Positions 628 to 51,242 of a stretch of DNA of 62,562 bases are shown here, one piece after another. A program made the position numbers and the translations under genes. The number at the start of each line of letters is the position of its first letter. Position 1 is the first letter of the stretch. The notes under the pieces were generated by a model. The model was given only the letters and a program-made list of their open reading frames with translations, made no database searches and had not been told where the DNA came from. The stretch comes from a virus. The stretch lies in UHGV virus genome UHGV-0106067; one strand, written 5' to 3'.

Positions 628-2601
628 TTATGCTGCTACGGCATTCACACCAACAGTAAGACTTTCAATCAGCACAGGGTAAGTTGCCGCATTTCCGGTA
701 ATATCCGTAATTGCCAGCGCGTTGGCCTCAAAGGCTGCATTCGTCCATCTGGTCAGCGTAAACGGTTTTCCTGCTGCATTATCAAGCACCGGCGTGACGT
801 TCAGCGAGCCACCACCCGGGAAGCGGAAAGTCAGCGTGTGCCAGTCGTGATCGAACGGACCATAACTACCAAGCCGCTGTGATGTGGTGTTTGCATGATA
901 CATCACATTGATGTTTGTTTTATCAGTCTGCAGATAGAAGGCCGCAATATAACCCTCCTCTGATTCCGCTCCCGGCCATCCACTACCGCGCCAGTAAATA
1001 CCCGCAGAATATTGATTTGCAGAAGCATTGAGAGATACATCATCGGGGATTTTAAAGCGCAGCGTGATTTCACCGCCGTTATCGAACAGCTCCTTCCCCT
1101 TACCGGCATCAATTGCGTGCGATACTTTCCAGGTCTTTTTCTGTGCAAGACCATTTTCTGGTTTTTCAAGACGAAGGGCTTTTTTACCTGAACCACTGTC
1201 ACTGACCAGCGTGTTTTTGACATCTGTCAGCGTCCAGCCCTGCGAAGCCAGAGCGGCATTTTCCGCATTCACATCATAAGCCAGCACTGACTGTATCTTT
1301 GTCGGGACAACGGCTTCAGGCTGAGTATCGCCACTCTCCTGTGCTGGTTGCGATACGCCTCCGCCTGAAGAAACCGCGGCTTTTGTCACTTTCCCGGAAA
1401 CAAAATCTGCCACTCTGCCCACATGCAGAAGAATGGCTGTTGCCAGACGGTCGGAAATAATTCCGCGACGCGCCCATGAACCAAAGTGGGTTTTACGATC
1501 GGATGTTGTCCAGCTCTTCGCATCCGTTCGTCCACCGGAACCATAATACCCGATAGCCGGAATATCCGGGTCTTCTGACGGTTCATTGGTCCCGACTTTC
1601 TGACCATTGTCATCCATCATAAACGGCACAAAGAAGATATTTTTACCGGCTTTGGTTTTGTATGCGCCATAGACGGCATCGTATTGCGCTGAATACGTCT
1701 CCTTCCAGTAGTACGTCGTGTCACCACAAATCCAGGGCACCAGAGAAGGAGAAGCACCAGCGCACTGACCGGATACTCCCGCCAGGTCAGAACGGTATTT
1801 TTCCACCATGGCATCAAACATGGCGGGCTGACTGGCGTACGCTCCCTGTTTTAAATCAAACTCGCCCTGCATCCAGACAACACAAAGCAGTATGTTTTTG
1901 GGGTTTGCCTTCAGCGCGACCTGAGTGCGTGTCAGCAGGTCTTTATACAACGGCTTATCAACGCCCCATCGTTCAGATTTATCCGACGCTCCTGAACTTT
2001 CACTGAACGTTCCGTCAGCACCGGCTGTAAACGCAGAGCCACCACGACAGCACGGCACTAACAAAATACCCGCATTTTCCGGCATAAAGGGCAACAGCTT
2101 TTTGGCAATATGCAATCCCTGTCCGACACACCCATACTGCTCTGCGCTGGCTTTCGGATGAGAAAAACGGCTCAAATCCTGCACATCATGCAGGCAGTGG
2201 TCCGCCGGAATGATGTCGTTATATGCACAGGCCGCACCACCCGGTGTCACCGTACTGCGACGCGCCAGCTGTTTAATACGCGGGTCCGGACGGTCATATG
2301 TCTCCGGCAGCGGCAGGCCTTCACCATACGCCATGCCGTTTGACTGTCCGGCCAGCGCAATGACAAAGTAATATTCTGGTTCAACAACAACAGTCCGGGT
2401 ACCATCTCCCCCCGGTGAAACTACCGGAGAGGTCATATCCCCTTCAGCGACTATAGCCTGGATAAATTCAGCACCATAACCCGCGTTTGAGATAATCGGA
2501 CTACCATAGGGTTGCCAGCCTTCCTTCAGTTTTTGCGTCAGTTTTCCTGCGAGGTCTGACGGCGATGATGCCCTGACCACATCATAATGTTTAAATGCCA
2601 T
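628..2601 (-). CDS. nanS-p: Prophage-type sialate O-acetylesterase NanS-p (DUF1737 N-domain + SASA/SGNH esterase + C-terminal lectin-like domain)
   Basis: N-terminus MAFKHYDVVRASSPSDLAGKLTQKLKEGWQP is DUF1737-like. Catalytic GQSN motif (ALAGQSNGMAYGEG). 657 aa, SD GGGAGGA. Confidence 0.85.
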   Translation of the reverse strand: MAFKHYDVVRASSPSDLAGKLTQKLKEGWQPYGSPIISNAGYGAEFIQAIVAEGDMTSPVVSPGGDGTRTVVVEPEYYFVIALAGQSNGMAYGEGLPLPETYDRPDPRIKQLARRSTVTPGGAACAYNDIIPADHCLHDVQDLSRFSHPKASAEQYGCVGQGLHIAKKLLPFMPENAGILLVPCCRGGSAFTAGADGTFSESSGASDKSERWGVDKPLYKDLLTRTQVALKANPKNILLCVVWMQGEFDLKQGAYASQPAMFDAMVEKYRSDLAGVSGQCAGASPSLVPWICGDTTYYWKETYSAQYDAVYGAYKTKAGKNIFFVPFMMDDNGQKVGTNEPSEDPDIPAIGYYGSGGRTDAKSWTTSDRKTHFGSWARRGIISDRLATAILLHVGRVADFVSGKVTKAAVSSGGGVSQPAQESGDTQPEAVVPTKIQSVLAYDVNAENAALASQGWTLTDVKNTLVSDSGSGKKALRLEKPENGLAQKKTWKVSHAIDAGKGKELFDNGGEITLRFKIPDDVSLNASANQYSAGIYWRGSGWPGAESEEGYIAAFYLQTDKTNINVMYHANTTSQRLGSYGPFDHDWHTLTFRFPGGGSLNVTPVLDNAAGKPFTLTRWTNAAFEANALAITDITGNAATYPVLIESLTVGVNAVAA

Positions 2602-2840: not shown

Positions 2841-3211
2841 GAGAGTATTACCTGGTTTCAGTTAACTGCATAGTGCCGGGTGCCTCCCGGTGAGTTCAGC
2901 CCGGTGCCACCGAACCCGCGTCTTTCACATTGCCTGTGACATTAAAAATGCCAGCCCGCACCAGCCGCCCCGCCGCTGAGGGGGATTCACCATGCGTTGC
3001 GATTTTTAACAAATTCACCGCCAGCCAGACAATCATCAACTTGCTGAATTGTGAGGTATTTAAAAATTTCCCCGATTAACTGATACCCTGCTAACCACCT
3101 GTTGTTTTCTTTTTCAGCAACAAAAAAGCCCGCTCATCGGCGGATTCGGCTGCGTGGCAATGTAACCATTCTTATCATGATATGAGGATTTTTACGATTG
3201 TAAAATGTTTT

Positions 3212-4306
3212 TTAACTGACACCAGAATCATCATAACCGCGACTTGTTATAGCTTGCCTGTATGCGTTCATTTTGCGTTCTGCGTACTGGACAACATCTT
3301 TAATGACAAGCTTATGAACAACTGAAATAAGGTCATTTATATAACAAAAGTCAGGTGACTTATTTTTCACTGGCAACCAAATAACATCGTTCTTAATTTT
3401 TCTATTACTAACACTATCCCCCCATGAATATTTATGTGAAATAGACCTATAAATACATGAAATAATGCCCAAATAAGCAAACTTTGTCCTTCCATCCTCA
3501 TTGTTAACATAGAGTCGCAAATTATGACTGTCGTTTGAAAAAAAGTCTCGCTCCTGATAAGTTACAACGAATGTCTTACCACCAATAAAAATACAGTTCC
3601 CTTTTTCCAAGAGTGAGTCATCATAGGCGATATAAGAACTAACAGAGTTATTATCACGGCTAGCACAAAGATAAGGAACATCCCCACTATTTTCTATGAT
3701 GTCTCTAGACAATATGTTTCCTGTATTGCACACTGAGAATAACTCAGTAACAGGAAAGCCTGAAAATTCAATATTTTTAAAATGTTCCAGGATAAGATAA
3801 TCTTTTTCCGTTAGTTGGTAATCACTCAGCCCAGCAGCTATCAGGTATGCTTCCAGCTCTTCTATATGGGCCGCTTCCAGCTCTTCTATATAATTATCCA
3901 TAAAAAACCAGTCAATTTCATTATTTTTCACTGGTAATGAGATGAAATATTCTCCATCTCTGAGTTTGGAACTCGATAACTGTTGACCATAATTAAAACG
4001 CCCCTTTAAAGCTTTATTAATCATACTGGCAACATACAGTCCGCGCTTTGCATTAAAGTCGGACTTACTTGATTTTAATGTAAGAACATGCACCTTCATT
4101 TCTACGCTGGCACAATAAGGATGATAAAAAGCATCTCCAAAAAAATTAACGCTTATAAAATTTTCATAATGTCTTGCATCATCCATAAACTCGGTATCAA
4201 ACTCTCCGATGATACCGTTTTGATCGCTCTTTGCTGAAACACGTTTGATTTTGCCTGGTTTTAATCTTCCTGAGGAGATAAGCGAGCCTGTGCTCACATA
4301 GAACAA
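3212..4306 (-). CDS. RM specificity subunit (HsdS/BcgIB-like, two target-recognition domains)
   Basis: 364 aa. Two variable halves separated by a helical spacer (NYIEELEAAHIEELEAYL). N-terminal WGEFRIGDLF-type motif lies just upstream of the TTG start, so the start is uncertain. Immediately follows the MTase gene. Confidence 0.7.
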   Translation of the reverse strand: MFYVSTGSLISSGRLKPGKIKRVSAKSDQNGIIGEFDTEFMDDARHYENFISVNFFGDAFYHPYCASVEMKVHVLTLKSSKSDFNAKRGLYVASMINKALKGRFNYGQQLSSSKLRDGEYFISLPVKNNEIDWFFMDNYIEELEAAHIEELEAYLIAAGLSDYQLTEKDYLILEHFKNIEFSGFPVTELFSVCNTGNILSRDIIENSGDVPYLCASRDNNSVSSYIAYDDSLLEKGNCIFIGGKTFVVTYQERDFFSNDSHNLRLYVNNEDGRTKFAYLGIISCIYRSISHKYSWGDSVSNRKIKNDVIWLPVKNKSPDFCYINDLISVVHKLVIKDVVQYAERKMNAYRQAITSRGYDDSGVS

Positions 4307-4365
4307 ATCGCCAATCCTGAACTCTCCCCACTCAACGCTTCTTAATTTATCGCTGAGCGGGGAAT

Positions 4366-6327
4366 TTACTTTCCCGCAAAATTGTTTTCACCTTGTTTTT
4401 TCAGTAATTGCGAGACCTCCCATGCAAGGTAATCACCTACCGTCTTTTTGAAATCCTCCAGCGTTGGCCTAGCATCTACTGGCCTGGTCTGATTCCAGTC
4501 CTCACCACTATCAGGATCGATTGTTCCCTCAAAATATTCATCCTCCGTAAAGATATTAAGGCAACCTTTCCCGAAGTGAACCAGATCCACAACCTCCTGA
4601 TAACGCTCTTTTGCACGATCGGCATCAACAAGATTGTTTCTTGCCTTTTTGCGATTAGAGCGAGCGTAGCCGTCATTGGAAAAGTCGATAAACTTAACAG
4701 CCTGTTTCGCGTTATGCGGAATTTTTACCTGAAAAACGTAAATGTACGTCTGAACGCTTGATTTACCAATAAACAGATCCGCAGGCATTTTGATGCTTGC
4801 CAGCAAGGTATTTTCCTTGAGTATTTTTTTGTTGTACTCCGTAGCCTTTCCTGTGCCAGCTGAACTCTGGATAATCACTGCAGCATAGCCTTTATCCATC
4901 ATCGACAGCGCCTTCTGCACGAAAATCATGCCGTTACCTTTAGCTGAATACGGAGGATTGAGAATAAATGCGTCCGCAGGGAATTTTTCTCCTGTTTTCC
5001 CAAATCCATACTTGCCGTCAAAATCGGCCAGCGAGTCTTTATTGAGGATATTCGAGCTACCATCCCCCATCAAAATCATATTCAGGATGGCCAGCATATA
5101 AATACTGGATAACACCTCAAGGCCAAGAAGCTGTTCAGCCTTGATTTGCGCTTCCTTAAGTTGTAGTTCGTTCGGTGAGTGAATATTTTCTCTGGCGTCA
5201 ATGAGCATTTCATTCATTGCAGCCACAAGCAATCCCGCAGAACCTGTAGCAAAATCCCACACATAGGAATCTTTGTTTACTCTGGCGAGTCGTGCCAGCA
5301 ATGTGGCAACATAAGGTGGTGTCAGAACGACGTCATTGAGCTTGTCCTGCGTAAATCCAAGCCAGCGATACATCTCATTAAACAGTTTGCCCGTAAAATC
5401 GGTGGTCAGTCCAATTTTGTAATACTCCCCAAGATCATCAACAACTTTAACAAACACGCGCTTTAACTGGCTTTCACCGTTGACTGGTTTGTTAATGTTT
5501 TCAGTCCACAGCGTATTTTGCAACGAGCGCAAAATCATTTCTCTTTTTGTTTCAGGAACAGCTTTCAGCCTTAAAAAGTTCCTTATTTTCCTGAAAATAA
5601 TATCACCATCACGCAAGTCCTCCTCCGTTGAAGAGGTCAGTTCTTTTTTATCCAGCGGTGCTAACTTTCCCGGAATCCCCAACGTTGCAATAACGGTAGC
5701 CACAACAAGGTAAACACGATCGCTTTCACCAAGCCCCTTTTCATTCTGGTAAATATCGTTATTCAGACGGGAAAGTCGCGTGTCTATCTCTTCCTCTTTG
5801 CTGGCCTTGATTTTTTCCAGTTCTTCGGGAGGAAGATTAAGCAGCTTTATCTTGTTGAGAAATCCATCAACATTTTTGTCAGCAAGGAACGATAAGTCGG
5901 TGAATTCACCAACCTTCTGTCCGGCTCCTAAATTATTCTTTGATACGTACCACACGCCGATTTCATGATGCAGTTCGCCTGTACCATCATCGCGCCAGCC
6001 GGTCATACCAATAGCAATAATATCAGGGTAATTGGTGAACTGAAGAAGTGCGTTGGCATAATGGACTGCGCCATTCACCGCGTATCCATTAATATTTTTA
6101 AAATTCCATTCTTTTCTGGCATCTTTGTTCTCAATAATACCGTTGCTGCCAAGTCTGATAAGCCTGTCCTTGTAGCCTTTATACTCGATGAGAACGGGAT
6201 ACTGCTTGCCGTATTTGTCCTTAACAAGGAGTTTTACGTCGGGACGATTACCGCCTGCGCCGCCATTTTTCGAAAAATAAGCGTCCAGTGCGTTATCGAT
6301 CTCTCCGTTAAGTGATGCATTCTGCAA
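4366..6327 (-). CDS. Fused PD-ExK endonuclease / N6-adenine DNA methyltransferase (type IIB BcgIA-like). The listed ORF begins at an internal TTG. The SD-ATG at 6461 is out of frame because of the heptamer tract.
   Basis: MTase motif I VWDFATGSAGLL and motif IV NPPY (FILNPPYSAKG). N-terminal RPD...17 aa...IEYK nuclease motif. The frame stays open upstream through the repeat. Confidence 0.8.
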   Translation of the reverse strand: MQNASLNGEIDNALDAYFSKNGGAGGNRPDVKLLVKDKYGKQYPVLIEYKGYKDRLIRLGSNGIIENKDARKEWNFKNINGYAVNGAVHYANALLQFTNYPDIIAIGMTGWRDDGTGELHHEIGVWYVSKNNLGAGQKVGEFTDLSFLADKNVDGFLNKIKLLNLPPEELEKIKASKEEEIDTRLSRLNNDIYQNEKGLGESDRVYLVVATVIATLGIPGKLAPLDKKELTSSTEEDLRDGDIIFRKIRNFLRLKAVPETKREMILRSLQNTLWTENINKPVNGESQLKRVFVKVVDDLGEYYKIGLTTDFTGKLFNEMYRWLGFTQDKLNDVVLTPPYVATLLARLARVNKDSYVWDFATGSAGLLVAAMNEMLIDARENIHSPNELQLKEAQIKAEQLLGLEVLSSIYMLAILNMILMGDGSSNILNKDSLADFDGKYGFGKTGEKFPADAFILNPPYSAKGNGMIFVQKALSMMDKGYAAVIIQSSAGTGKATEYNKKILKENTLLASIKMPADLFIGKSSVQTYIYVFQVKIPHNAKQAVKFIDFSNDGYARSNRKKARNNLVDADRAKERYQEVVDLVHFGKGCLNIFTEDEYFEGTIDPDSGEDWNQTRPVDARPTLEDFKKTVGDYLAWEVSQLLKKQGENNFAGK

Positions 6328-6417
6328 CTTGTAATCAAGCCTGTAAGATTTAAGCCATGAGTTCGCCAGTTCGGTAATTTCCGGCTCAACAGATTTTACA
6401 GACTTTCTTGATTTACT

Positions 6418-6452
6418 GCTGGTCGCTGGTCGCTGGTCGCTGGTCGCTGGTC
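6418..6452 (-). repeat. Heptanucleotide tandem repeat (GACCAGC)x5 in the 5' coding end of the RM gene
   Basis: Five perfect copies of gctggtc on the plus strand at 6418-6452. They lie 9 nt downstream of ATG 6461 (SD AAGGA). Confidence 0.95.
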
Positions 6453-6635
6453 TGGCAGCATAAAATCATCCTTTTATGAAAATCAACGATTTTTGAGCAC
6501 TCGCACACAAAAAATTACCGCATTGGTTGCAACGACAACCTGCATTTTGCGGAGCATATGACAAATAAAGTACGGGTGCGTTGAGGATGCCAGACACATC
6601 AGAGGTGGCGGGAGATTACTCCCCTGCCTGGTCTC

Positions 6636-6791
6636 TTACTTCTCAGATTCGTAGTCTACGAAGACAGCGACCTCCGTCTGGCCGGTTCGGATTCGTACCT
6701 CGCAGAAGTCTTTCCTCGTTACCAGTGCTATCACTACGACGGTAATACAGATGACGATCAGGGCGATTAACATCGCCTTTTGCTGCTTCAT
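6636..6791 (-). CDS. hok: Hok/Gef-family type I toxin (HokD/RelF-like)
   Basis: Translated by hand: MKQQKAMLIALIVICITVVVIALVTRKDFCEVRIRTGQTEVAVFVDYESEK (51 aa). Below the ORF-track cutoff. SD AAGGAG. Confidence 0.9.
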   Translation of the reverse strand: MKQQKAMLIALIVICITVVVIALVTRKDFCEVRIRTGQTEVAVFVDYESEK

Positions 6792-6975
6792 AGCCTACTT
6801 CTCCTTGCCTTTCGGCACGTAAGAGGCTAACCTAAGTTTGTAAGTCATAGATTTGGCCTCAGATTAATGTTAAGCGTCCTGCAAGACGCGTAATGTTAAC
6901 TGGGGCTTTTCTCTGTCTGCCTTACGGCTGCATGCCCGAGGCAGACAGCCTCAAGCACCCGCAGCTATTCTACAG
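6792..6975 (-). promoter_or_regulatory. hok mRNA leader with a mok-like upstream ORF and the expected Sok antisense region; candidate -10 TAGAAT
   Basis: The leader matches the remembered R1 hok leader blocks (GCTTGAGGCTnTCTGCCTC, GGCAGAnAGA, AGCCCC, TAGCCTCTTAC, GCAAGGAGAAG). uORF ATGACTTAC...AAGTAG ends just upstream of the hok ATG (TAG-GCT-ATG). Confidence 0.6.
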
Positions 6976-6990
6976 TAAAAACTCGCGCTT

Positions 6991-7416
6991 TCAATTTCCC
7001 GCACGTCCGGCAAACTGACTGGCCTGTGATCCTGATGGTTCACGCTCAACGTACCTGTCCATTTCCAGCTTTACTCCCTGCATGATCAACATCCCCTCAA
7101 TAACACCTTCTGCTTTTTGCAGTACCCGCCCGGCCCAGCAATCAGAGCGCCCATGCTTACGGCCCAGTGACATAAGCGTCATCCCGAACACATAATAATC
7201 ATACAGAAAATCATGCAAATCGCTGTTGTTGACGTTCAGTTGCGCCATGCAATTGCTGATAATCAGCGCATCGTCATCGGTACACTGAGGCCGTGATTTA
7301 ACCTTTGACGGGATCAGCCCCTTAAATCCGGCGGCAATGGGCGACCAGCTCACATCCTCATGATTATTGGCCACCCATGCGCCCCAGCGTTCAAGCACCT
7401 GCTGAATATCACGCAT
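6991..7416 (-). CDS. Q: Late-gene antiterminator Q (phage 21/933W Q family)
   Basis: [24 protein letters not shown]... matches the remembered Q21-type N-terminus. The start was moved to M36 of the listed ORF. Overlaps the ninH stop. Confidence 0.85.
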
Positions 7417-7609
7417 CAGAGTCTTTACCCTTATCCCATCCACGATGGACCATAAGGACACCGTTGACGACGGCGTGCCGTTTGCCTTCTTTATCGCCAA
7501 TATATTTTCTGACCGTGGCACGATTACAGTTCAGTATTCGGGCCACCTCGGTCTGATTTCCATATGCCTCAACAAGCATGTCAGGAATGATTTTTACGGT
7601 GAACGTCAT
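7409..7609 (-). CDS. ninH: NinH
   Basis: [36 protein letters not shown]... is close to lambda NinH. Confidence 0.85.
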
Positions 7610-34900: not shown

Positions 34901-37291
34901 GCGACCAGCGGCATTTTCCGGTGCCTGCGCACGTCCTTTCTGGAAACTCTGGCCCTTCACCTCACCGGTTGTGGTAAAACGACCACCACGTCCGGCCTGA
35001 TTTTCATCCGGCGTACGCGCTACTTCTCCTGGTAACGGATATCCCTGTCCGGGATGAATATCGCCGGGAGCGGGAAGGCGTGGACGCTCAGTTAACTCCT
35101 GTGCTGTCGGACCGGCATCACCTTCAGCCATCTGGGAACGCACCAGTTCTTCCGCCGTCGGCGCGTTGCCACGGGCAAGACGGGCCTGCACTTCTGTATC
35201 ATCCCCCGTAAAACCACGGAATCGCGGGTCACGCATGAACGCGGGCTGTTCCATCGGATCAGCATCAGTAATACGCTCTCCGTCAGCCAGAGTGTTAATG
35301 GTCTCCGTTGCCACATCTTCAGAGAACGCAGGATTATCCATTTCAACGGCATACTGATTCTCGCCTTTCTTCACTACGGACGGTTTCAGGCCGGTGGCGC
35401 TGGCATTGCGGAAAACGTCGCTCCCCAGAGCACTTTTTTCATCCGTGAAATAACGGTTGTCCGGACGCACCTTTTCAATGCGTTCTGCTGGTCTGGACGC
35501 ACCACTCCCGTTAATTTCAATACGAACTTCATCCGGATCGCGGAACCGCACCGTCGGGTAAATACTCCCGTCGCCATCATCCGCATTTTCCGGCTGTGGC
35601 TGTGCCTCCGGTCTGGCCTCCTGCTGAGGGCGAAGCACATCACGGATAGCCTGTAACTGCTGCTCTTCAGTATCAGTACGCCCTTCCTTCAGGCTGAGTT
35701 TTCGGTATTCCTCAAGCAGTTCAGGGCGCGGCTTCGCCTTCAGCTCATCCATCACCGCCTGTCGCTTCGCCTGTTCATCCAGTTCATTTAACAGCTGGCT
35801 GGCGGCTTCCCGGCGATGAACGGCAGACGTGTCTCCCTCAGGTGCCATATCCGCATCAGCATACTGTTCCAGAAGTTGCTCGCGATTCATGCCCTGCATG
35901 GATTCGCGATGCTGTGCCACCGGATCAGCCGGTTCGGGTTGCGGGGCTGCTTCACCCTGCTGTACGACTTCAGCCTCACGCATGGCGGTTTCTTCTGCGG
36001 CCTGACGTTTTCCACGATATCCGGCAACCGCACCGAACGGTGCGCCCATCGCTGCACCAAGAGCGGCTCCTTCGATCGTTGCGTCAGCTACCCCCTCCCA
36101 TGGTGATACATCCATTCCGGCAGTCTCACGCAACGTCATATTTTCCTGGTAACGCGAATAGCCGCCCTGCGCCGCATTAATCGTCCCCTGTTCCGTGGCA
36201 TTTCTGACAATGCCGCTTTTAACGGTCTTCGCCGTGCCCCGCATCGCCAGATTAAACAACTGAGCATCGCCCAGTTTTGCCGCCATGGCATTCACAGCCA
36301 GCAATTCAGGATCGGTTGCCAGCTGCGCGCGCACCTCATCGGCAACACGCTCTTTTGCCAGATCCATTTTCTGGCGATCAGTAAGCTGTGCGTGCTGCGG
36401 ATCTGCATCAATTGACAAAAACGTCTGCTGAAATTTCGGGGACTTCGCCAGCTCAGAGTAATCCGCGTTAAGAACAGAGTCTGCTGCTGCCATTGCACTC
36501 TGCCCCTGTGCGCTGGCTGAGGAATGGGTGATCAGGCCTGCCTGGAATAAATCCGGCATTTTTTTATCGACAGCTTCTGCTGCCAGTGCGGTAGCTCTTT
36601 CCGGCTGCATCCCTGCCGCAATGTATTTTTTCTCCAGCCCGGCGGTCAGCACTTTTCGCAGAGTGACTTCACCCAGCTTTTTAGTCACACCGCCTGCAAC
36701 CATATCAGGTACAAGGGCACCAATCAGGTTTACGCCCTTCGCCACCCAGACCGCAGAATCATCATAGCCTTCAGTCATCGGTGTATTCAGCGCCCGCTGC
36801 GCCCCCGGCGACATCTTGCCAGTCAGCCATTCATCCGAGGCTTTAGCGCCGCCACTGACTGCCTTGCCTGTGACCTTCAGACCTTTACCGACAGTATCAG
36901 TAACCGCATTTTTTCCATCAGGCAGAGTGTCGATGACCTCATCCGCCCCCTTGCTGCCACCGACAAAAATATCCTGAACAGTTGCGACTCCCGGCAGCCC
37001 CATACGGCTGAACTCATTTAAAATACGCGCCCCTGTTTTTACCGGGCTCTGAATCATCGCATCACCGAGTCCACGGGCCATTTCCCCTGCCCCCCGGACA
37101 GACTGGGCGACACCTTTCCCCATCGTTGGTAATACATCACTCAGGCTGAACGATGTGCTGTGATCAACAGCGTTCTCCGGGTTGTTGAAAAAATCCTGCC
37201 AGTAATTTTCGCCCGGCTGCTTAATGTTCAGGCTGCTGCGGTTCCGGTTACCCAATTGTGCTTCAGGGCGCTGTTCATCTGAATAAGCCAT
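28940..37291 (-). CDS. Giant (2783 aa) polyvalent virion/ejection protein with two zincin HExxH motifs and hydrophobic segments
   Basis: HEWFH at 33461-33475 and HEIIH at 32660-32674. Gly-zipper/TM-like stretches near both ends. The size is typical of 933W-like podophages. Confidence 0.75.
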   Translation of the reverse strand: MAYSDEQRPEAQLGNRNRSSLNIKQPGENYWQDFFNNPENAVDHSTSFSLSDVLPTMGKGVAQSVRGAGEMARGLGDAMIQSPVKTGARILNEFSRMGLPGVATVQDIFVGGSKGADEVIDTLPDGKNAVTDTVGKGLKVTGKAVSGGAKASDEWLTGKMSPGAQRALNTPMTEGYDDSAVWVAKGVNLIGALVPDMVAGGVTKKLGEVTLRKVLTAGLEKKYIAAGMQPERATALAAEAVDKKMPDLFQAGLITHSSASAQGQSAMAAADSVLNADYSELAKSPKFQQTFLSIDADPQHAQLTDRQKMDLAKERVADEVRAQLATDPELLAVNAMAAKLGDAQLFNLAMRGTAKTVKSGIVRNATEQGTINAAQGGYSRYQENMTLRETAGMDVSPWEGVADATIEGAALGAAMGAPFGAVAGYRGKRQAAEETAMREAEVVQQGEAAPQPEPADPVAQHRESMQGMNREQLLEQYADADMAPEGDTSAVHRREAASQLLNELDEQAKRQAVMDELKAKPRPELLEEYRKLSLKEGRTDTEEQQLQAIRDVLRPQQEARPEAQPQPENADDGDGSIYPTVRFRDPDEVRIEINGSGASRPAERIEKVRPDNRYFTDEKSALGSDVFRNASATGLKPSVVKKGENQYAVEMDNPAFSEDVATETINTLADGERITDADPMEQPAFMRDPRFRGFTGDDTEVQARLARGNAPTAEELVRSQMAEGDAGPTAQELTERPRLPAPGDIHPGQGYPLPGEVARTPDENQAGRGGRFTTTGEVKGQSFQKGRAQAPENAAGRQGEILEGETVRRGLPSPDEQNATAPMREGLPAPESQRGVDMPQPESLPRMVRDSLPELAQQAEARRQTGDNRQTITDVPDTEVPVPVDKPSTHQQARGAKIEDFGEEIKGAAKHRYAQLAEAMGKTLEDGEYATQPLSKLFPKPDYARLEKEGVDSDTLAMMALYRSEIPTRTSRNMQKWISIVKSGREATAGMLEGKIPAAKLADMMDSKPGLRSMSDTWKLLRTLSALQIDKASGYRVRSGVYSFVGGKRYDPPQMMYSLRDSKGRDLFFSESRDELLKKAKAYFDEQGSRERETPATSADDRITFDVYRHKASGDIFIGYGKNRQKLKGGFESARDAHDYVRTHRDELVNQVKALREVSREEQRNATNRDRTGPERRKGDVSPEQFSDAFGFCGVQFGNYVESPRRQADLNRAYDSLHDLADVLNVPTKALSLNGRLGLAFGARGKGKAAAHYEPGEVAINLTKGNGPGALAHEWFHSLDNYFGRYDVSTDGKITSGGDYMTEAQRAGRVFKDGRYVDAEYPVRQEVYDAFKGVMKAINSSDMLRRSERLDGVRSKPYWSTDVEMAARAFERYVQDKARMAGVENDYLVNIRKADDHGQPDTYAYPTNAELDGGIREAFDHLFRTLKTRETDKGVAFYSRKGVTRTPEGNLISDVNRSAEAKGSPVPQVEAVARGVISGIKDSDLKVRVVKSQKEAEALAGESFDGYGKVHAFYRPDKREIVLVADNIPDGRTVREKLRHEIIHHAMEHVVTPAEYQTIIKTVLKTRDSDNATIREAWRKVDASYAKESPEVQAGEFLAHMAEKQPNKFVAAWERVVALVKGVLRRTGLLKPTELNDIRLVRETIRTLGQRVREGYTPREDGAGASSQYSRSGKTDPFKVPEGEGERYRDDLARMMKSLRTTDLTVNIGRTPPVLRHLGAPDLPLVISRDTVRKATNGVKHVVPMDVIERLPELMHDPDAIYRSATERNAVVMLLDAMDKNGDPVVSAVHMKAVRSRLEINKVASVYGTEGGMNKANSLDKAGLTLYRKKKLSRDNLLHRGLQLPKGEHSYRGSVDKILYPEDIRKGPYYSRTSSLTPEETIASRFVRQMQDKFQVLKAVQENIRKTGGKIDDSNNAYMAEELFHGKAENDLNVMKERYVQPLAKLLADYKIAQADLDEYLYARHAPERNAHIAKINPKMPDGGSGMTNAEAAEIMQRVRNSGKQAQYDRLAGIVDDMLARRRELIREAGLEESGVVDAWQNAYRYYVPLKGQDVDGVVSLPRAGKGFTIGGRESRQAMGRASRAQSPSTQAIQDLSESLIRNRKNEVGNAFLKLVQDNPDKDYWQVFTDDKPDTMRAIAERVDPETGETRREVVERPVPMAMMADRYFTTKKDGKTYYIKLHDPRLMRAMKNMGPETSNAVIRTLGKVNRFLATVNTSYNPEFLVSNFIRDVQTAVMNLKAEQGRSDGKLKGLDNLSALAVVKDSRSAMSAVYASLRGKTLTGNGAQWQKVWKEFVEDGGKTGWFNMGDLEGQQKEMDRLVSLAKGGWKGQSIGAWHSFLNLVEDANGAVENALRLSAYKHARDAGLSRQQAASLAKNMTVNFNRRGEQGALMNSLYMFANASIQGTANLVRTLGHLNGDGPLPERLRWKNLNVPQKIALAAVGAGYLLGSLNRSVAGEDDDGVNWYDKVPSHVKERNLVIMKSVFGGKAGEYWSIPLPYGYNVFFLLGHTAEGVAAGDLTASRAAGNVVGGILGAFSPVGSETSETLSGALLKNAAPTILRPFANLAMNENFMGAQIYQENMPFGTPKPDSQLGRRSTPEAYKAFASWLNAFSGGSQYRPGAVDITPESLKFWIDYISGGTGRFISKTTDAAVKSLNGIDIPEQQVPFLGKISGEVMPYADQQKMYDRMTEVAQYHAELKSLTGAERTAFIDENNGKLLMNGLMQDTRKRLKDLRKQRDAIYADSTLSLAQQSAMVKSVERDMKIAVDRFNREYNKKVGVE

Positions 37292-46487: not shown

Positions 46488-47762
46488 TTAAAACTCGAAG
46501 TTCACACCAACATTCCAGGAGGCATCGCCATCACTGAATGCCACGCCTGCTTTCGCTGCGGTCTGCTCGTTGAAGCGGTAACCCACACCCACCGCCAGTG
46601 CCTGCTGGTCGCTGTAACCACCAACCGCTGCCGTGGCGTTGAATTTACCCACACTGTACGGCTGGAACAGACCTGTCAGGGCCGCAGACTGTGCTGCTGC
46701 TCGTTTCATTTCCTTATGGTTTTCATTAATCTGGCGCTGCTGGCTGTCCAGACGTGCTGAATGTTGCTGCAGCGTACGGGTATTGGCTGCAATCGCCTTG
46801 CTGTTTTTCTCAATGGATTGCGTGTTACGGGTGACACGGCCATCAATGGCACCAACTGCTGCATCAATACGGTCAGTACGACCAGACAGGGCTACCAGAC
46901 CATCGTTAACAGAAATGGTGTTCTTTGCACCTTCTGCACGGGTCAGGGTGCCGTCAGAACTCACACCAACAGTGGTGCGATCTTTGATGGATTTATCCAG
47001 ATCAACAATAGCATCGCTTACACGCACATTTTTTGGAGCTGTAACATCATGTGTATAGCTGCCATCCTCTTCCTGATAAATGGTTGTATCTGCCTGAATG
47101 GCTGCAACTACATTTTTTACAGACTCTCGCTCCACTGAGCCTGTTTCATCAAGGGTAATGTTACCGTTAGCATCGATAGCAAAAGTTGTGTCTTTATTCA
47201 ACCTATCTATATTGGTAACGATGCGGTTGTATTCCTGCAGAACACCTGGGCCTTGTTTAACAGCAGCAAGCGCGGCATCAGAGTTTCCCCCTGAACGAAC
47301 CGCAGACACATACGCTGGCGCTGTTTCAGATGTAATCTTAGAAGATATATCATCTTTCAAAGCTAATACTTTATCTAAATCATTTTTATTTATTTTTTTC
47401 AAAGACTCTAATTTTAAACTCTCTGAGTAAACAGGAAATGATATTTTATTAGCTATATCCTGTAACTCTTTTTTAAAATCAGGACTATCGACATTATATT
47501 TAAATTTTTTTATCAACGCAGTATACGCATTTTCCATCTCCTTTTTATTATATGACATGACGCTTCCTGTTGCTGTATTAATAGCACCTAAAACCTCTTT
47601 TCCTTGTGCGTCTACTATCTTGGCACCTTCCCCATCCTTGTAAAATTTTACGATGTAATCGCTGCCTTTAACTGGGATATCTAAAGCCATGGCCCCAGAA
47701 CTCACCAGCATCAGTCCGGCAACAGCAGATGAAAGAATAGTCTTTGTAAATTTCTTGCTCAT
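46488..47762 (-). CDS. eib: Trimeric autotransporter adhesin, Eib (immunoglobulin-binding)-like
   Basis: Signal peptide, coiled-coil stalk, YadA-type anchor ...[28 protein letters not shown]...WNVGVNFEF. Confidence 0.7.
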
Positions 47763-49178: not shown

Positions 49179-51242
49179 TCAGTATGCGCGCTGGAACAGC
49201 CCGATGCCTTCATTGTCATTTGTCGACGTAATTTCATTACACACCATCCATGAGCCCGGAACTGAGGATAGGTTGCCGTCAATGCCATCGGTGTTAGCTT
49301 TCATATAGTTCCCGCTTGCATCTTTGATTATGGCGCATCGCTTAAGGCGTGAACCCTGTACAGTTTCTCCTGGCTGATAGGTTCTGCCGATGTCGGTTGT
49401 ATACGGGGCTAGTGCGGCAATAATGTATGTTCCGATGCTGTAAATTTCCCCGGGTACCAGCCTTCCGGTTGGCCCTTGTGGTCCCTGTGGTCCGGTTTTA
49501 CCATCCAACCCGGGCAGTCCCATCGGCCCTCGCCCTCCGGCAGGGCCCTGTGGCCCCGTTTTACCCGCAGGACCTGCCGGACCAACCGGCCCCGGAACAC
49601 CCTGTGCCCCCGCTGGTCCCCTTTCACCTCGTGGCCCTGCCGGGCCTGCATCACCTTTGGGACCAGCTGCACCAGCCGGTCCCTGTGGGCCTGCGGGCCC
49701 CACTGCTCCCGCAGGTCCTGTCGCCCCCTGCAGCCCACGGAGGCCCTGCTCACCTTTCTGTCCTGCAGGCCCCTGAGGTCCGGGTTCACCGCGCTCACCT
49801 TTCGGACCTGTGGGACCTGCCGGTCCTTGCTCGCCCCTGTCACCTTTCGGTCCAGGTATGCTTTCTCCCGACGGGCGGGTTGTCGCAACCTCTTCTGCCT
49901 TCTGTTTCGCTGCCCTGGCCTCATCCATTGCCGCCTTCACAGCTTTCGGTGTGGCTGCCTTCGTTTCATCATCACTGTCCGTTGCGCTGCTTAACTGCAC
50001 AATTCCCTTCTGTGCCGTCGTCGCATCTGCCACATTTGCTGCGCTGCCCGCCGGGCCTGGCTCCCCACGAGGTCCCTGAGGTCCAGCTTCGCCTCGTTCA
50101 CCTTTCGGACCTGCCGGACCCGGTTCACCTCTCTCTCCGGCGGGGCCCTGTAATCCTTGCGGACCACGTTCCCCGGGTTCCCCTTTCGGCCCCGCAGGTC
50201 CGGTCTCACCGCGCTCTCCCTTTGCTCCTGCCGGCCCCGGCTCACCTCTCGGACCAGTATCCCCCTTTGGTCCCTGAGGCCCCCCCGGGTCTCCTTTTTC
50301 GCCTCTGGCCCCGGTTTCACCACGCGGCCCCATTGCTCCCTGTGGCCCGGTCGCACCACGTGGGCCAGATGGCCCTGTTGCGCCAGCTGGCCCCTGCACT
50401 CCCTGAGGTCCCCGTTCTCCTGTATCACCTTTCTGGCCCGGTATGCCCTGAGGTCCGCGCTCTCCCTGCTCACCTTTCTCCCCACGCGGACCCGCCGGAC
50501 CTGTTTCACCACGAGGACCAGCATCACCTTTCGGCCCTGTATCGCCTTTAGGTCCTCGTGCATTCTCAGCCATACGTCTGGCTTCTTCAGCACTAACCGT
50601 AGCAGCCTCAGCACGTTTAAGAACGTCTCCGGCGGCTTCCTGAGCCACTCTGGCGGTTTCAGCATGTTGTCTGGCCTCTTTAGCGTCAGCTGCCGCTGCC
50701 TTTTCAGACTCACCTGCCCGGGTCGCCGCCTCTGCAGCCTCACTGGCTTTTTGTGCAGACTCCGTCGCTTTGCTGGTCGCAGCCTTCGCGCTTTCTGATG
50801 CAGTCTTCGCACTGGCAGCAGCGCTTTCCTTCGACTGTGAAGCCTGATTATTTTTCACCGCCGTGTCTTCGTTCAGACGACGAATCGTGGCAAGGTCATC
50901 CGCCACATTGTTCTGTATCTGCCGGAAATCTGTCAGCAGTTCTCCGGGTATGCTCACCTCAACAAGACTGCGGCGTAACAGCATATTGAGCGTCACCGTA
51001 CTTTCAGTCCCCTCAATACGCACACGTCCGTAGACAGCAGTCTTCCCTTTCACCGTCACAGAAACCGCATACTCCCCCGGCTCCAGCGTCATTCCGTAAT
51101 ACCCGCCGTCACGAGTCACTGCTGACGCACTGGTGCCGCTGAGCGCATCCGGTGAAACTGTCAGCGCCGTCAGGGTAATATTTGCGCCTGATATCGCCTC
51201 ACCATCAGGAGATTTCAGCGTCCCCGAAACAACAACACTCAC
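49179..51242 (-). CDS. Tail fibre with N-terminal fibre domain and long collagen-like Gly-X-Y repeats
   Basis: [27 protein letters not shown]... then two Gly-X-Y blocks ([22 protein letters not shown]...). Confidence 0.85.

Follow-up and report, generated by a model that had tools for sequence, protein, structure and literature searches.

A predicted −1 frameshift and a heptanucleotide repeat in a BcgI-like restriction–modification cassette of an Escherichia coli prophage

Introduction

The 62,562-nucleotide viral genome UHGV-0106067 (hereafter the window; 62.5 kb) carries on its minus strand, between the antiterminator gene Q and nanS-p, a two-gene cassette for a large methyltransferase-like protein and a specificity subunit (S). 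RefSeq labels the products 'HsdM family methyltransferase' and 'restriction endonuclease subunit S', the latter as a separate coding sequence. Two questions follow from these labels. Is the cassette an orphan type I methylase with its specificity subunit (M+S) or a self-contained restriction–modification (RM) enzyme, and how is S made when its reading frame has no evident start? A preliminary description of the window favoured a complete BcgI-type (type IIB) system and left the initiation of S between TTG 4306 and coupling to, or a frameshift from, the methylase gene.

We consider it likely that the cassette is a frame-linked, phase-variable type IIB RM system, and that the whole is best explained by three elements together: the identity of the enzyme, an RM–S fusion made by frameshifting, and a repeat that acts as a switch. 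A broader proposal, to which we give slightly better than even chances, is that a BcgI-like family spanning several phyla uses −1 programmed ribosomal frameshifting (PRF) at G_GGA_AAR, followed by a stop and a hairpin, to make RM and RM–S from one mRNA at a ratio set by recoding, with the E. coli copies at the stx locus being phase-variable in addition. What is new here is the family-wide conservation of the frameshift cassette and the very long, translated heptanucleotide switch that is specific to E. coli prophages.

Results and Discussion

A BcgI-like enzyme rather than an orphan methylase

We refer to the large gene and its product as RM. PADLOC assigns this protein to REase_MTase_IIG (E-values of 6e-228 to 3e-232), with its type I methylase models reaching only ~1e-23 or worse. 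S is assigned to 'Specificity_II' (9e-25 and 6e-24), and no type I S model matches it at ≤0.01. The NCBIfam hsdM equivalog TIGR00497, with a cut-off of 242.75, reaches 36.3 bits on RM. The cassette also matches PADLOC models of 637 and 341 positions (3e-44 and 9e-25), lengths that we take to be those of BcgI A and B. Pfam identifies N6_Mtase in RM (4e-21) and no HsdM_N domain, while Methylase_S matches S at 1e-19 in two stretches and thus gives it two target-recognition domains (TRDs), as had been proposed. RM shares 28% identity, across 99% of its length, with its counterpart in Staphylococcus phage phi-42 (Sau42I). A profile search of PDB sequences with RM returned HsdM proteins (best 6e-21) and RM.BsaXI (2.6e-7), in each case over the methylase part only, and a single-sequence phmmer search of RM against PDB sequences gave no match.

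The N-terminal signature of the preliminary description is present, as NRPDVKLLVKDKYGKQYPVLIEYKG, with RPD, exactly 17 residues between D and E, and then IEYK. Residues D59, E77 and K79 (numbered by the translation of window positions 4366-6414) are invariant in RM alignments reaching down to 22-31% identity. An AlphaFold2 (AF2) model of this domain has a predicted local distance difference test (pLDDT) score of 94.3, a confident PD-(D/E)xK fold whose nearest structures are the nuclease domains of HsdR and BpuSI, then Hjc, VRR-NUC, Cas4 and FokI. On this model the RM N-terminal domain is a PD-(D/E)xK nuclease domain, and the invariant D, E and K together with the complete modelled fold indicate selection for catalysis. 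Full-length RM, modelled from a shallow alignment whose members are all ≥72% identical, gave a poor AF2 model (pLDDT 53.6), and its Foldseek matches reflect the methylase only. The methyltransferase motifs reported earlier were also found, and their order, I and then IV, places the enzyme in the gamma class. A predicted PD-(D/E)xK nuclease is therefore fused N-terminally to a gamma-class N6-adenine methyltransferase in one polypeptide, and this is accompanied by an HsdS-like module with two TRDs.

An ATP-dependent translocase (HsdR) is missing from the neighbourhood, as the preliminary description had stated: none of the 19 open reading frames (ORFs) of ≥300 aa in the window is HsdR-like, and none is encoded beside the homologues in Neisseria and Providencia. 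Those homologues are likewise two-gene cassettes without HsdR. In Neisseria they lie in the chromosome, flanked by housekeeping genes, and in Providencia they lie in a prophage between antiterminator and lysis genes. An orphan type I system would be expected to show an HsdM_N domain and an hsdM equivalog score; neither was found, and the N-terminus has a nuclease fold instead. We conclude that the cassette is, as predicted from its domains, a BcgI-like type IIB/IIG RM enzyme of the prophage and not an orphan type I M+S. Its two-sided cleavage, recognition site and subunit composition are what we infer for an enzyme of this kind. The earlier assignment to the BcgI type thus holds for the class of enzyme; its picture of a complete system does not carry over, since S has no start and lies in the −1 frame, which makes a plain A + B pair improbable, and the 5-repeat allele of the window is out of frame and not expressed.

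The RM N-terminal domain could also be an inactive relic, leaving a methyltransferase-only M+S that serves as a phasevarion regulator or as a methylase for phage self-protection. The resemblance of the methylase core to HsdM would fit this, as would a 5' repeat tract typical of phasevarion methylases and the fact that most E. coli alleles are OFF (see below). There is also a precedent in gonococci, where neither a methylated motif nor restriction was detected for the BcgI-like NgoAVIII, a candidate for the named Neisseria relative and, according to the same paper, a system without BLASTn relatives (PMC6789123). Nonetheless, the D, E and K residues have not drifted even at 22-31% identity, the domain models as a complete nuclease fold, RM fusion enzymes, and not HsdM, give the strongest family match, and HsdM_N is lacking. 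We regard this alternative as quite improbable.

S in the −1 frame after a conserved heptamer

The S frame is open from 4387, encoding GKVNSPLSDKLRSVEWGEFRIGDLF, and no ATG, GTG or TTG occurs in it between 4387 and TTG 4306, so the earlier observation that S lacks a canonical start upstream of its conserved segment is borne out. Starting at TTG 4306, or at the GTG 4297 chosen by RefSeq, would delete VEWGEFRIGDLF, which is conserved in the family (consensus GKIDAPLNEKLKNVEWGEYKL). The 3' end of RM reads GCG GGA AAG TAA, and S follows in the −1 frame. A review of recoding classes the heptamer contained in this sequence, G_GGA_AAG, as 'highly shift-prone' in E. coli (Atkins 2016, PMC5009743).

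The junction was surveyed in 80 homologue loci (L013-L092), one genome per species and 67-73% identical in protein sequence, to which we added Neisseria, Providencia and a second E. coli allele. The survey covers Bacillota, Bacteroidota, Proteobacteria, Campylobacterota, the candidate phyla radiation (CPR), Chloroflexi and Spirochaetes. Across these groups RM stays ~70% identical and S is far more variable; an identity this high is unusual for an RM gene and points to wide, recent horizontal spread or to strong constraint. Genome hits numbered at least 573 in all. A second search for the large protein, based on the diverse alignment A2, again yielded the Neisseria cluster and brought no extra diversity.

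The 3' end of RM could be resolved in 74 loci, of which 69 are split and five are fused in frame. All but one of the split loci (68 of 69) place S in the −1 frame, and 66 retain a slippery heptamer, in the form GGGAAAR in 64 and replaced by an A-run in two (A_AAA_AAG and A_AAA_AAA). Locus L066 lacks a heptamer; its S is in the +1 frame and starts from an ordinary ATG. Among the 65 loci of a gapless alignment of the junction (A3), the stop directly 3' of the heptamer is TAG in 45, TAA in 17 and TGA in three; in three loci (L045, L092 and L095) the stop comes one codon further on. The start-less −1 layout was found in 66 species.

Codon choice at the heptamer is fixed. In all 68 GGGAAAR loci the codon before GGA ends in G, against 17.6 expected from the codon usage of each gene, although eight codons for seven amino acids are used at this position. 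The glycine codon is likewise GGA in 68 of 68, against 18.7 expected on the same basis. The genes in this test range from 27 to 52% GC. Coding in the RM frame cannot account for either fixation. The junction thus has a heptamer of the form X_XXY_YYZ in the zero frame with its synonymous sites conserved.

The −1 frame itself appears to lack an initiation site. No canonical start codon lies between the heptamer and the conserved tryptophan in 38 of the 65 aligned loci, and where one exists it occurs at five different positions. The −1-frame peptide GKIDAPLNEKLKNVEWGEYKL is nevertheless conserved across the aligned loci, and S-frame codon-position periodicity is present just 3' of the heptamer, in the hairpin loop. 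Natural in-frame fusions of 840-1190 aa are common among cluster representatives, and the predicted trans-frame product aligns across the junction, in a single high-scoring segment pair, with the in-frame fusions P0122 (E 9e-52) and P0135. The missing starts, the periodicity and these collinear fusions together indicate that the −1 ORF has no initiation site of its own. More distantly, a clade only ~37% identical, drawn from viral contigs, contains the cassette (L094, L095 and L098), an in-frame fusion and a separate ATG start. A scan of viral contigs yielded no relative of P0146.

Transcriptional slippage was rejected as a general mechanism, because the runs in GGGAAAG are only three bases long; it is possible in the two A-run variants. 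Rfam has no family at the junction, and the only match in the region is sok, which lies upstream. No frameshift in an RM system was found in the recoding review PMC5009743, in the GeneTack survey or in targeted literature searches; Sharma et al. 2011 (PMC3199440) lay outside this coverage and might list the cluster. One paper on a C-protein–REase fusion in a different system weighed frameshifting and found none.

A hairpin directly downstream

The heptamer is followed by a candidate frameshift stimulator, a stem-loop whose 81-nt segment (4300-4380) has a minimum-energy fold of −26.6 kcal/mol (z of −3.0; none of 200 shuffles was as stable). In A3, the heptamer occupies columns 4-10 and the helix columns 16-27 with 43-54, so that the helix starts 5 nt past the heptamer. 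Pairing in this helix reaches 95.8%, compared with at most 49% when one partner is slid along the other. Changes on both sides of a pair occur in 34 cells, a figure reached in none of 500 shuffles. At pair 24-46, for example, UA occurs 24 times, UG 22, CG 14 and GC twice, with no C-A. RNAalifold recovered the same helix independently. Three loci with unrelated linkers (L011, L065 and L085) each have a different strong hairpin in the same place. The junction thus has an RNA structure at a short spacer that is supported by covariation, though its arms are coding and most of its changes are one-sided.

Separately, at 4357-4377 the GCGGG of the heptamer region can pair with CCCGC in the 5' arm of the hairpin, and a scan of the plus strand calls a terminator-like site there. 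The potential for GGG/CCC pairing exists in most homologues as well. Such pairing could form an alternative structure that competes with the stimulatory hairpin.

A translated heptanucleotide tract at the start of RM

The annotated RM ORF in the window begins at TTG 6327, but homologues of 686 aa (72% identical, 100% query coverage) span 30 residues upstream of it. The PADLOC model match of an extended RM begins at position 15 instead of 36. The native start is therefore ATG 6461. From there the gene reads ATG-CTG-CCA and then (GACCAGC)x5. With five copies this ATG, 134 nt upstream of the in-frame TTG, is out of frame, and translation stops after 21 codons. RM is in frame only when the copy number is a multiple of three, so the allele in the window is OFF. 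The preliminary description spoke of a 6-repeat allele; the tract has five copies, and six would indeed restore the frame.

The same locus in other complete E. coli genomes and in PhiR12_3 has 31, 54, 64, 83, 83 and 99 copies, read directly, and further tracts have ~50 to 89 copies by span arithmetic. The in-frame alleles, of 54 copies (strain DETEC-S792) and 99 copies (strain G8), have ORFs of 812 and 917 aa that include an extended DQRPATS stretch; those of G6/7, G1/2 and ECOR13 are out of frame. An E. coli allele that has diverged to 85% DNA identity also contains the repeat, and none of the 80 loci of other species has a 5' repeat. The tract therefore combines a unit not divisible by three (7 nt) in the 5' coding region with length polymorphism among strains (5-99 copies), as phase-variable genes do. 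Slipped-strand mispairing would change its length and switch RM on or off, with only multiples of three being ON; actual ON/OFF switching is what we infer. Natural ON/OFF pairs exist, such as Symbioflor G8 (99 repeats, in frame) and G6/7 (83, out of frame). Literature searches for (GACCAGC)n returned chance 7-mer matches only and no paper with two or more copies, and a survey of simple sequence repeats in type I systems mentions neither E. coli nor 7-nt units (PMC7383803).

These features could also be those of a decaying, non-functional remnant, with RM frameshifted at its repeat and S a start-less pseudogene. The 5-repeat allele does stop after 21 codons, and S lacks a start codon. S is also split in two or interrupted by IS1 in several E. 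coli genomes (L010 2759-3871, L012 4422-5760 and others), so some copies of the cassette are decaying. Both long ORFs of the window are intact (653 and 385 codons), however, 66 species share the start-less −1 layout, a conserved state and not a lesion, and a repeat frame of this kind is reversible by design. We consider a remnant very improbable.

Two side observations concern the tract. Some Neisseria alleles (P0097 compared with P0096) have an in-frame (KSN)x3 near the N-terminus, at the position of the E. coli heptamer tract, and the 5' region of RM seems prone to repeat expansion. On the opposite strand of the repeat (L001 3122-3739, minus, and many RefSeq E. coli), an ORF is annotated as 'YXWGXW repeat-containing protein' or 'hypothetical protein'; it looks like a spurious frame created by the repeat.

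Proposed expression and assembly

When RM is in frame, ribosomes on its mRNA would meet G_GGA_AAG, at once a TAA, and 4 nt after the heptamer the 14-bp hairpin. Part of them would terminate and release free RM. The others would slip by −1 and read through a conserved linker (VNSPLSDKLRSVEW...) into S, giving an RM–S fusion of ~1070-1085 aa. Given the missing start of S, its −1 frame and the conserved heptamer and hairpin ahead of it, this fusion is most likely the only form in which S is made, and the products are probably RM and RM–S. As far as sequence evidence goes, S is then not a separate subunit of the kind found in BcgI, BsaXI and Sau42I. Of the two routes to S that the preliminary description had left open, the frameshift is favoured by the −1 frame, the heptamer and the hairpin, and the TTG 4306 start would lose the conserved segment.

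One free RM and one RM–S would add up to (RM)2S, the composition of BcgI and BsaXI (PMC3592470; PMC11997821). An engineered EcoKI M–S fusion depends on additional free M for its activity (PMC3510504), and with these two precedents RM plus RM–S would be a natural assembly. The efficiency of frameshifting, which we treat as a prediction along with frameshifting itself, would set the ratio of subunits from a single mRNA, as in dnaX. The RM polypeptide would supply nuclease and methylase, the two-TRD S would recognize a bipartite site, and an ATP-dependent HsdR would not be needed.

Several points weigh against this reading. Frameshifting is predicted here from comparative sequence, and nuclease activity and two-sided cutting are predictions from sequence and model. 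The two arms of the hairpin also encode protein (..PLN.. and ..VEWG..), so part of its conservation is protein constraint, and the majority of changed pairs differ on one side only (G-U); the spacer of 4 nt in the window is short. A possible start codon exists in the linker of 27 of the 65 loci (an ATG in Neisseria, for example), and in some hosts S may be initiated independently, alongside frameshifting or instead of it. A free S subunit works in this family, as relatives whose S begins at an ordinary ATG (L066, L100 and phi-42) indicate. As for the repeat, few alleles are in frame (two of the seven whose tracts were read directly, and ~2 of 16 with span arithmetic), and DQRPATS repeats of up to 231 aa in an ON protein may not be tolerated. 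The tract of five copies is the shortest seen and is matched by none of the complete genomes; it could be an assembly collapse.

The main competitor drawing on these points is an ordinary two-subunit BcgI-type enzyme, with a separate S started at TTG 4306, at GTG 4297, or at a non-canonical codon by termination–reinitiation coupling. S is separate in BcgI (PMC3592470), in BsaXI (PMC11997821) and, judging from the phi-42 junction, in Sau42I; it is ATG-initiated in L066 and L100, some ATG, GTG or TTG is available in 27 of 65 linkers, and RefSeq annotates it as its own CDS. Yet a start at 4306 or 4297 drops the family-conserved VEWGEFRIGDLF, 38 of the 65 loci have no canonical start and the rest have theirs at five positions, and the hairpin would occlude a start site. 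A separate S would also leave unexplained the fixed wobble G and GGA codon, the A-runs that replace the heptamer, and the coding periodicity that begins directly after it. We therefore think a separately initiated S unlikely, and retain frameshifting as the favoured route to S.

If the frameshift is real, it would be a new way to set the subunit stoichiometry of an RM enzyme, and it would link split, half-fused and fully fused type IIB architectures via a single-nucleotide frame relation. It would be, as far as we found, the first recoding event described in an RM system and a new widespread class of bacterial PRF, and a gene family of cells and phages would join the short list of bacterial −1 PRF cases. 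For annotation, a cassette labelled HsdM plus S is a self-contained restriction enzyme, and the RefSeq start of S drops conserved residues. A phase-variable RM downstream of Q, in the Shiga toxin slot, could let lysogens turn a barrier to superinfection on and off, and could provide the phage with a variable methylation mark.

Comparison with known systems

The likeness to BcgI of Bacillus coagulans (A2B) is one of architecture: an RM-type polypeptide of similar size with an N-terminal nuclease and a gamma N6A methylase, a two-TRD S and no ATP motor. BcgI A is 71.6 kDa and B is 39.2 kDa, assembled as two RM to one S (PMC3592470, PMC3874165). The present cassette differs in its start-less S in the −1 frame behind a heptamer and hairpin, in its 5' heptanucleotide tract and in being carried by a prophage. 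Sau42I, which has been studied experimentally, consists of BcgI-like RM and S genes in a temperate phage of S. aureus; it is cited as a published BcgI-like system (Dempsey et al. 2005, as cited in PMC6532042). Phage carriage of BcgI-like enzymes was thus already known from phi-42. There, S has an ATG and a Shine–Dalgarno (SD) sequence and overlaps the end of RM in the +1 frame, with no heptamer and no repeat tract.

The predicted frameshift product has the domain order of the single-chain enzymes AloI, PpiI and TstI (R~M~S1~S2) and HaeIV (R~M~S), whose architectures are tabulated in PMC3874165; unlike them, the fusion would need recoding and would be accompanied by free RM from the same mRNA. 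The engineered EcoKI M–S ('Type IMS', Roberts et al. 2012) is functional and needs free M, as proposed here, but it is artificial, type I and HsdR-requiring and involves no frameshifting.

In dnaX and lambda G/GT, a slippery heptamer and a 3' stem-loop yield two N-terminally identical products at a set ratio, although these belong to other gene families. The lambda G/GT shift site is G_GGA_AAG and that of dnaX is A_AAA_AAG. In some dnaX genes the zero-frame stop directly follows the shift site and the long product arises by frameshifting (PMC5009743).

Phase-variable methyltransferases, such as type III mod genes and the H. influenzae hsdM with its pentanucleotide, likewise have a repeat just after the start with a strain-variable length (PMC7383803). 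The tract described here differs in its 7-nt unit, its 31-99 copies (up to 693 bp), its translation as DQRPATS when ON and its place in a type IIB RM system on a prophage.

Prophage context and other features

The coordinates of the cassette and its parts are given in Table 1. The prophage that makes up the window is complete and 933W-like, a podovirus encoding a P22-type portal, an integrase, RecT and a 2783-aa polyvalent protein, and the slot between Q and nanS-p is the position of stx in Stx phages. The same cassette is found in the phage PhiR12_3 (from ECOR13), where the large gene is annotated 'BcgI alpha chain-like'. GC content is 0.35-0.36 in S and 0.43-0.44 in the large gene, compared with 0.48-0.54 in nanS-p, Q and the flanks, so the AT-richness that the preliminary description had guessed at without computing is real. 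Recent acquisition of the cassette is plausible from its low GC.

Table 1. Features of the RM–S cassette and its flanks (positions in the window unless a locus is named).
Feature	Position	Strand	Description
RM + S cassette	3212-6461	minus	between the Q/hok-sok side and nanS-p
RM gene	4366-6461	minus	putative nuclease and gamma-class N6-adenine methyltransferase; ~700 aa if the allele is in frame
RM ATG start codon	6459-6461	minus	AAGGA SD sequence at 6469-6473
(GACCAGC)x5 tract	6418-6452	minus	codons 4 onwards, encodes (DQRPATS)n; TRF 5.0 copies, 100% match
Large ORF, part still in frame	4366-6327	minus	653 aa from TTG; frame open upstream through the repeat
N-terminal PD-(D/E)xK nuclease domain (predicted)	5800-6414	minus	catalytic candidates D 6240-6238, E 6186-6184, K 6180-6178
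Methyltransferase core	4948-5256	minus	motif I DFATGSAG 5256-5233, motif IV NPPY 4959-4948
Slippery heptamer G_GGA_AAG	4369-4375	minus	RM frame; proposed −1 frameshift site
Zero-frame stop TAA	4366-4368	minus	directly 3' of the heptamer; ends free RM
Hairpin	4324-4364	minus	14-bp stem, 13-nt loop, 4 nt after the heptamer; proposed frameshift stimulator
S module including linker	3212-4369	minus	two TRDs, 385 codons, −1 frame; first post-shift codon GTA 4369-4367
S ORF from TTG	3212-4306	minus	364 aa
Terminator-like hairpin and T-run	3129-3144	minus	downstream of S; match to intrinsic-terminator consensus only
Antiterminator Q gene	6991-7521		upstream flank of the cassette
nanS-p	628-2601		other flank of the cassette
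Repeat tracts elsewhere	L001 3149-3729; L008 449-1141; L009 449-826; L010 449-665; L011 1088-1535		

Near the centre of S (~3845-3890, minus; L001 6258-6309) is a 24-bp tandem duplication of 2.2 copies that encodes IEELEAAHIEELEAYL. At the equivalent position in type I HsdS, TAEL/LEAT repeats set the length of the spacer in the recognition site, and a change in copy number of the 24-bp duplication might alter specificity.

Between Q and the RM cassette lies a hok/sok type I toxin–antitoxin system on the minus strand (6636-6791 and 6786-6960), with a Hok-like ORF of 51 aa at 6636-6791 and an Rfam sok match of 118 bits (E 1.5e-27). The 2783-aa ORF (28940-37291, minus) contains LPD38, LPD5, LPD1 and MuF_C domains; it is a large polyvalent protein like those that some phages and conjugative elements inject. 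Further along the minus strand, 46488-47762 encodes a 424-aa YadA-like membrane anchor protein, and 49179-51242 a 687-aa tail-fibre protein with five stretches of collagen triple-helix repeat.

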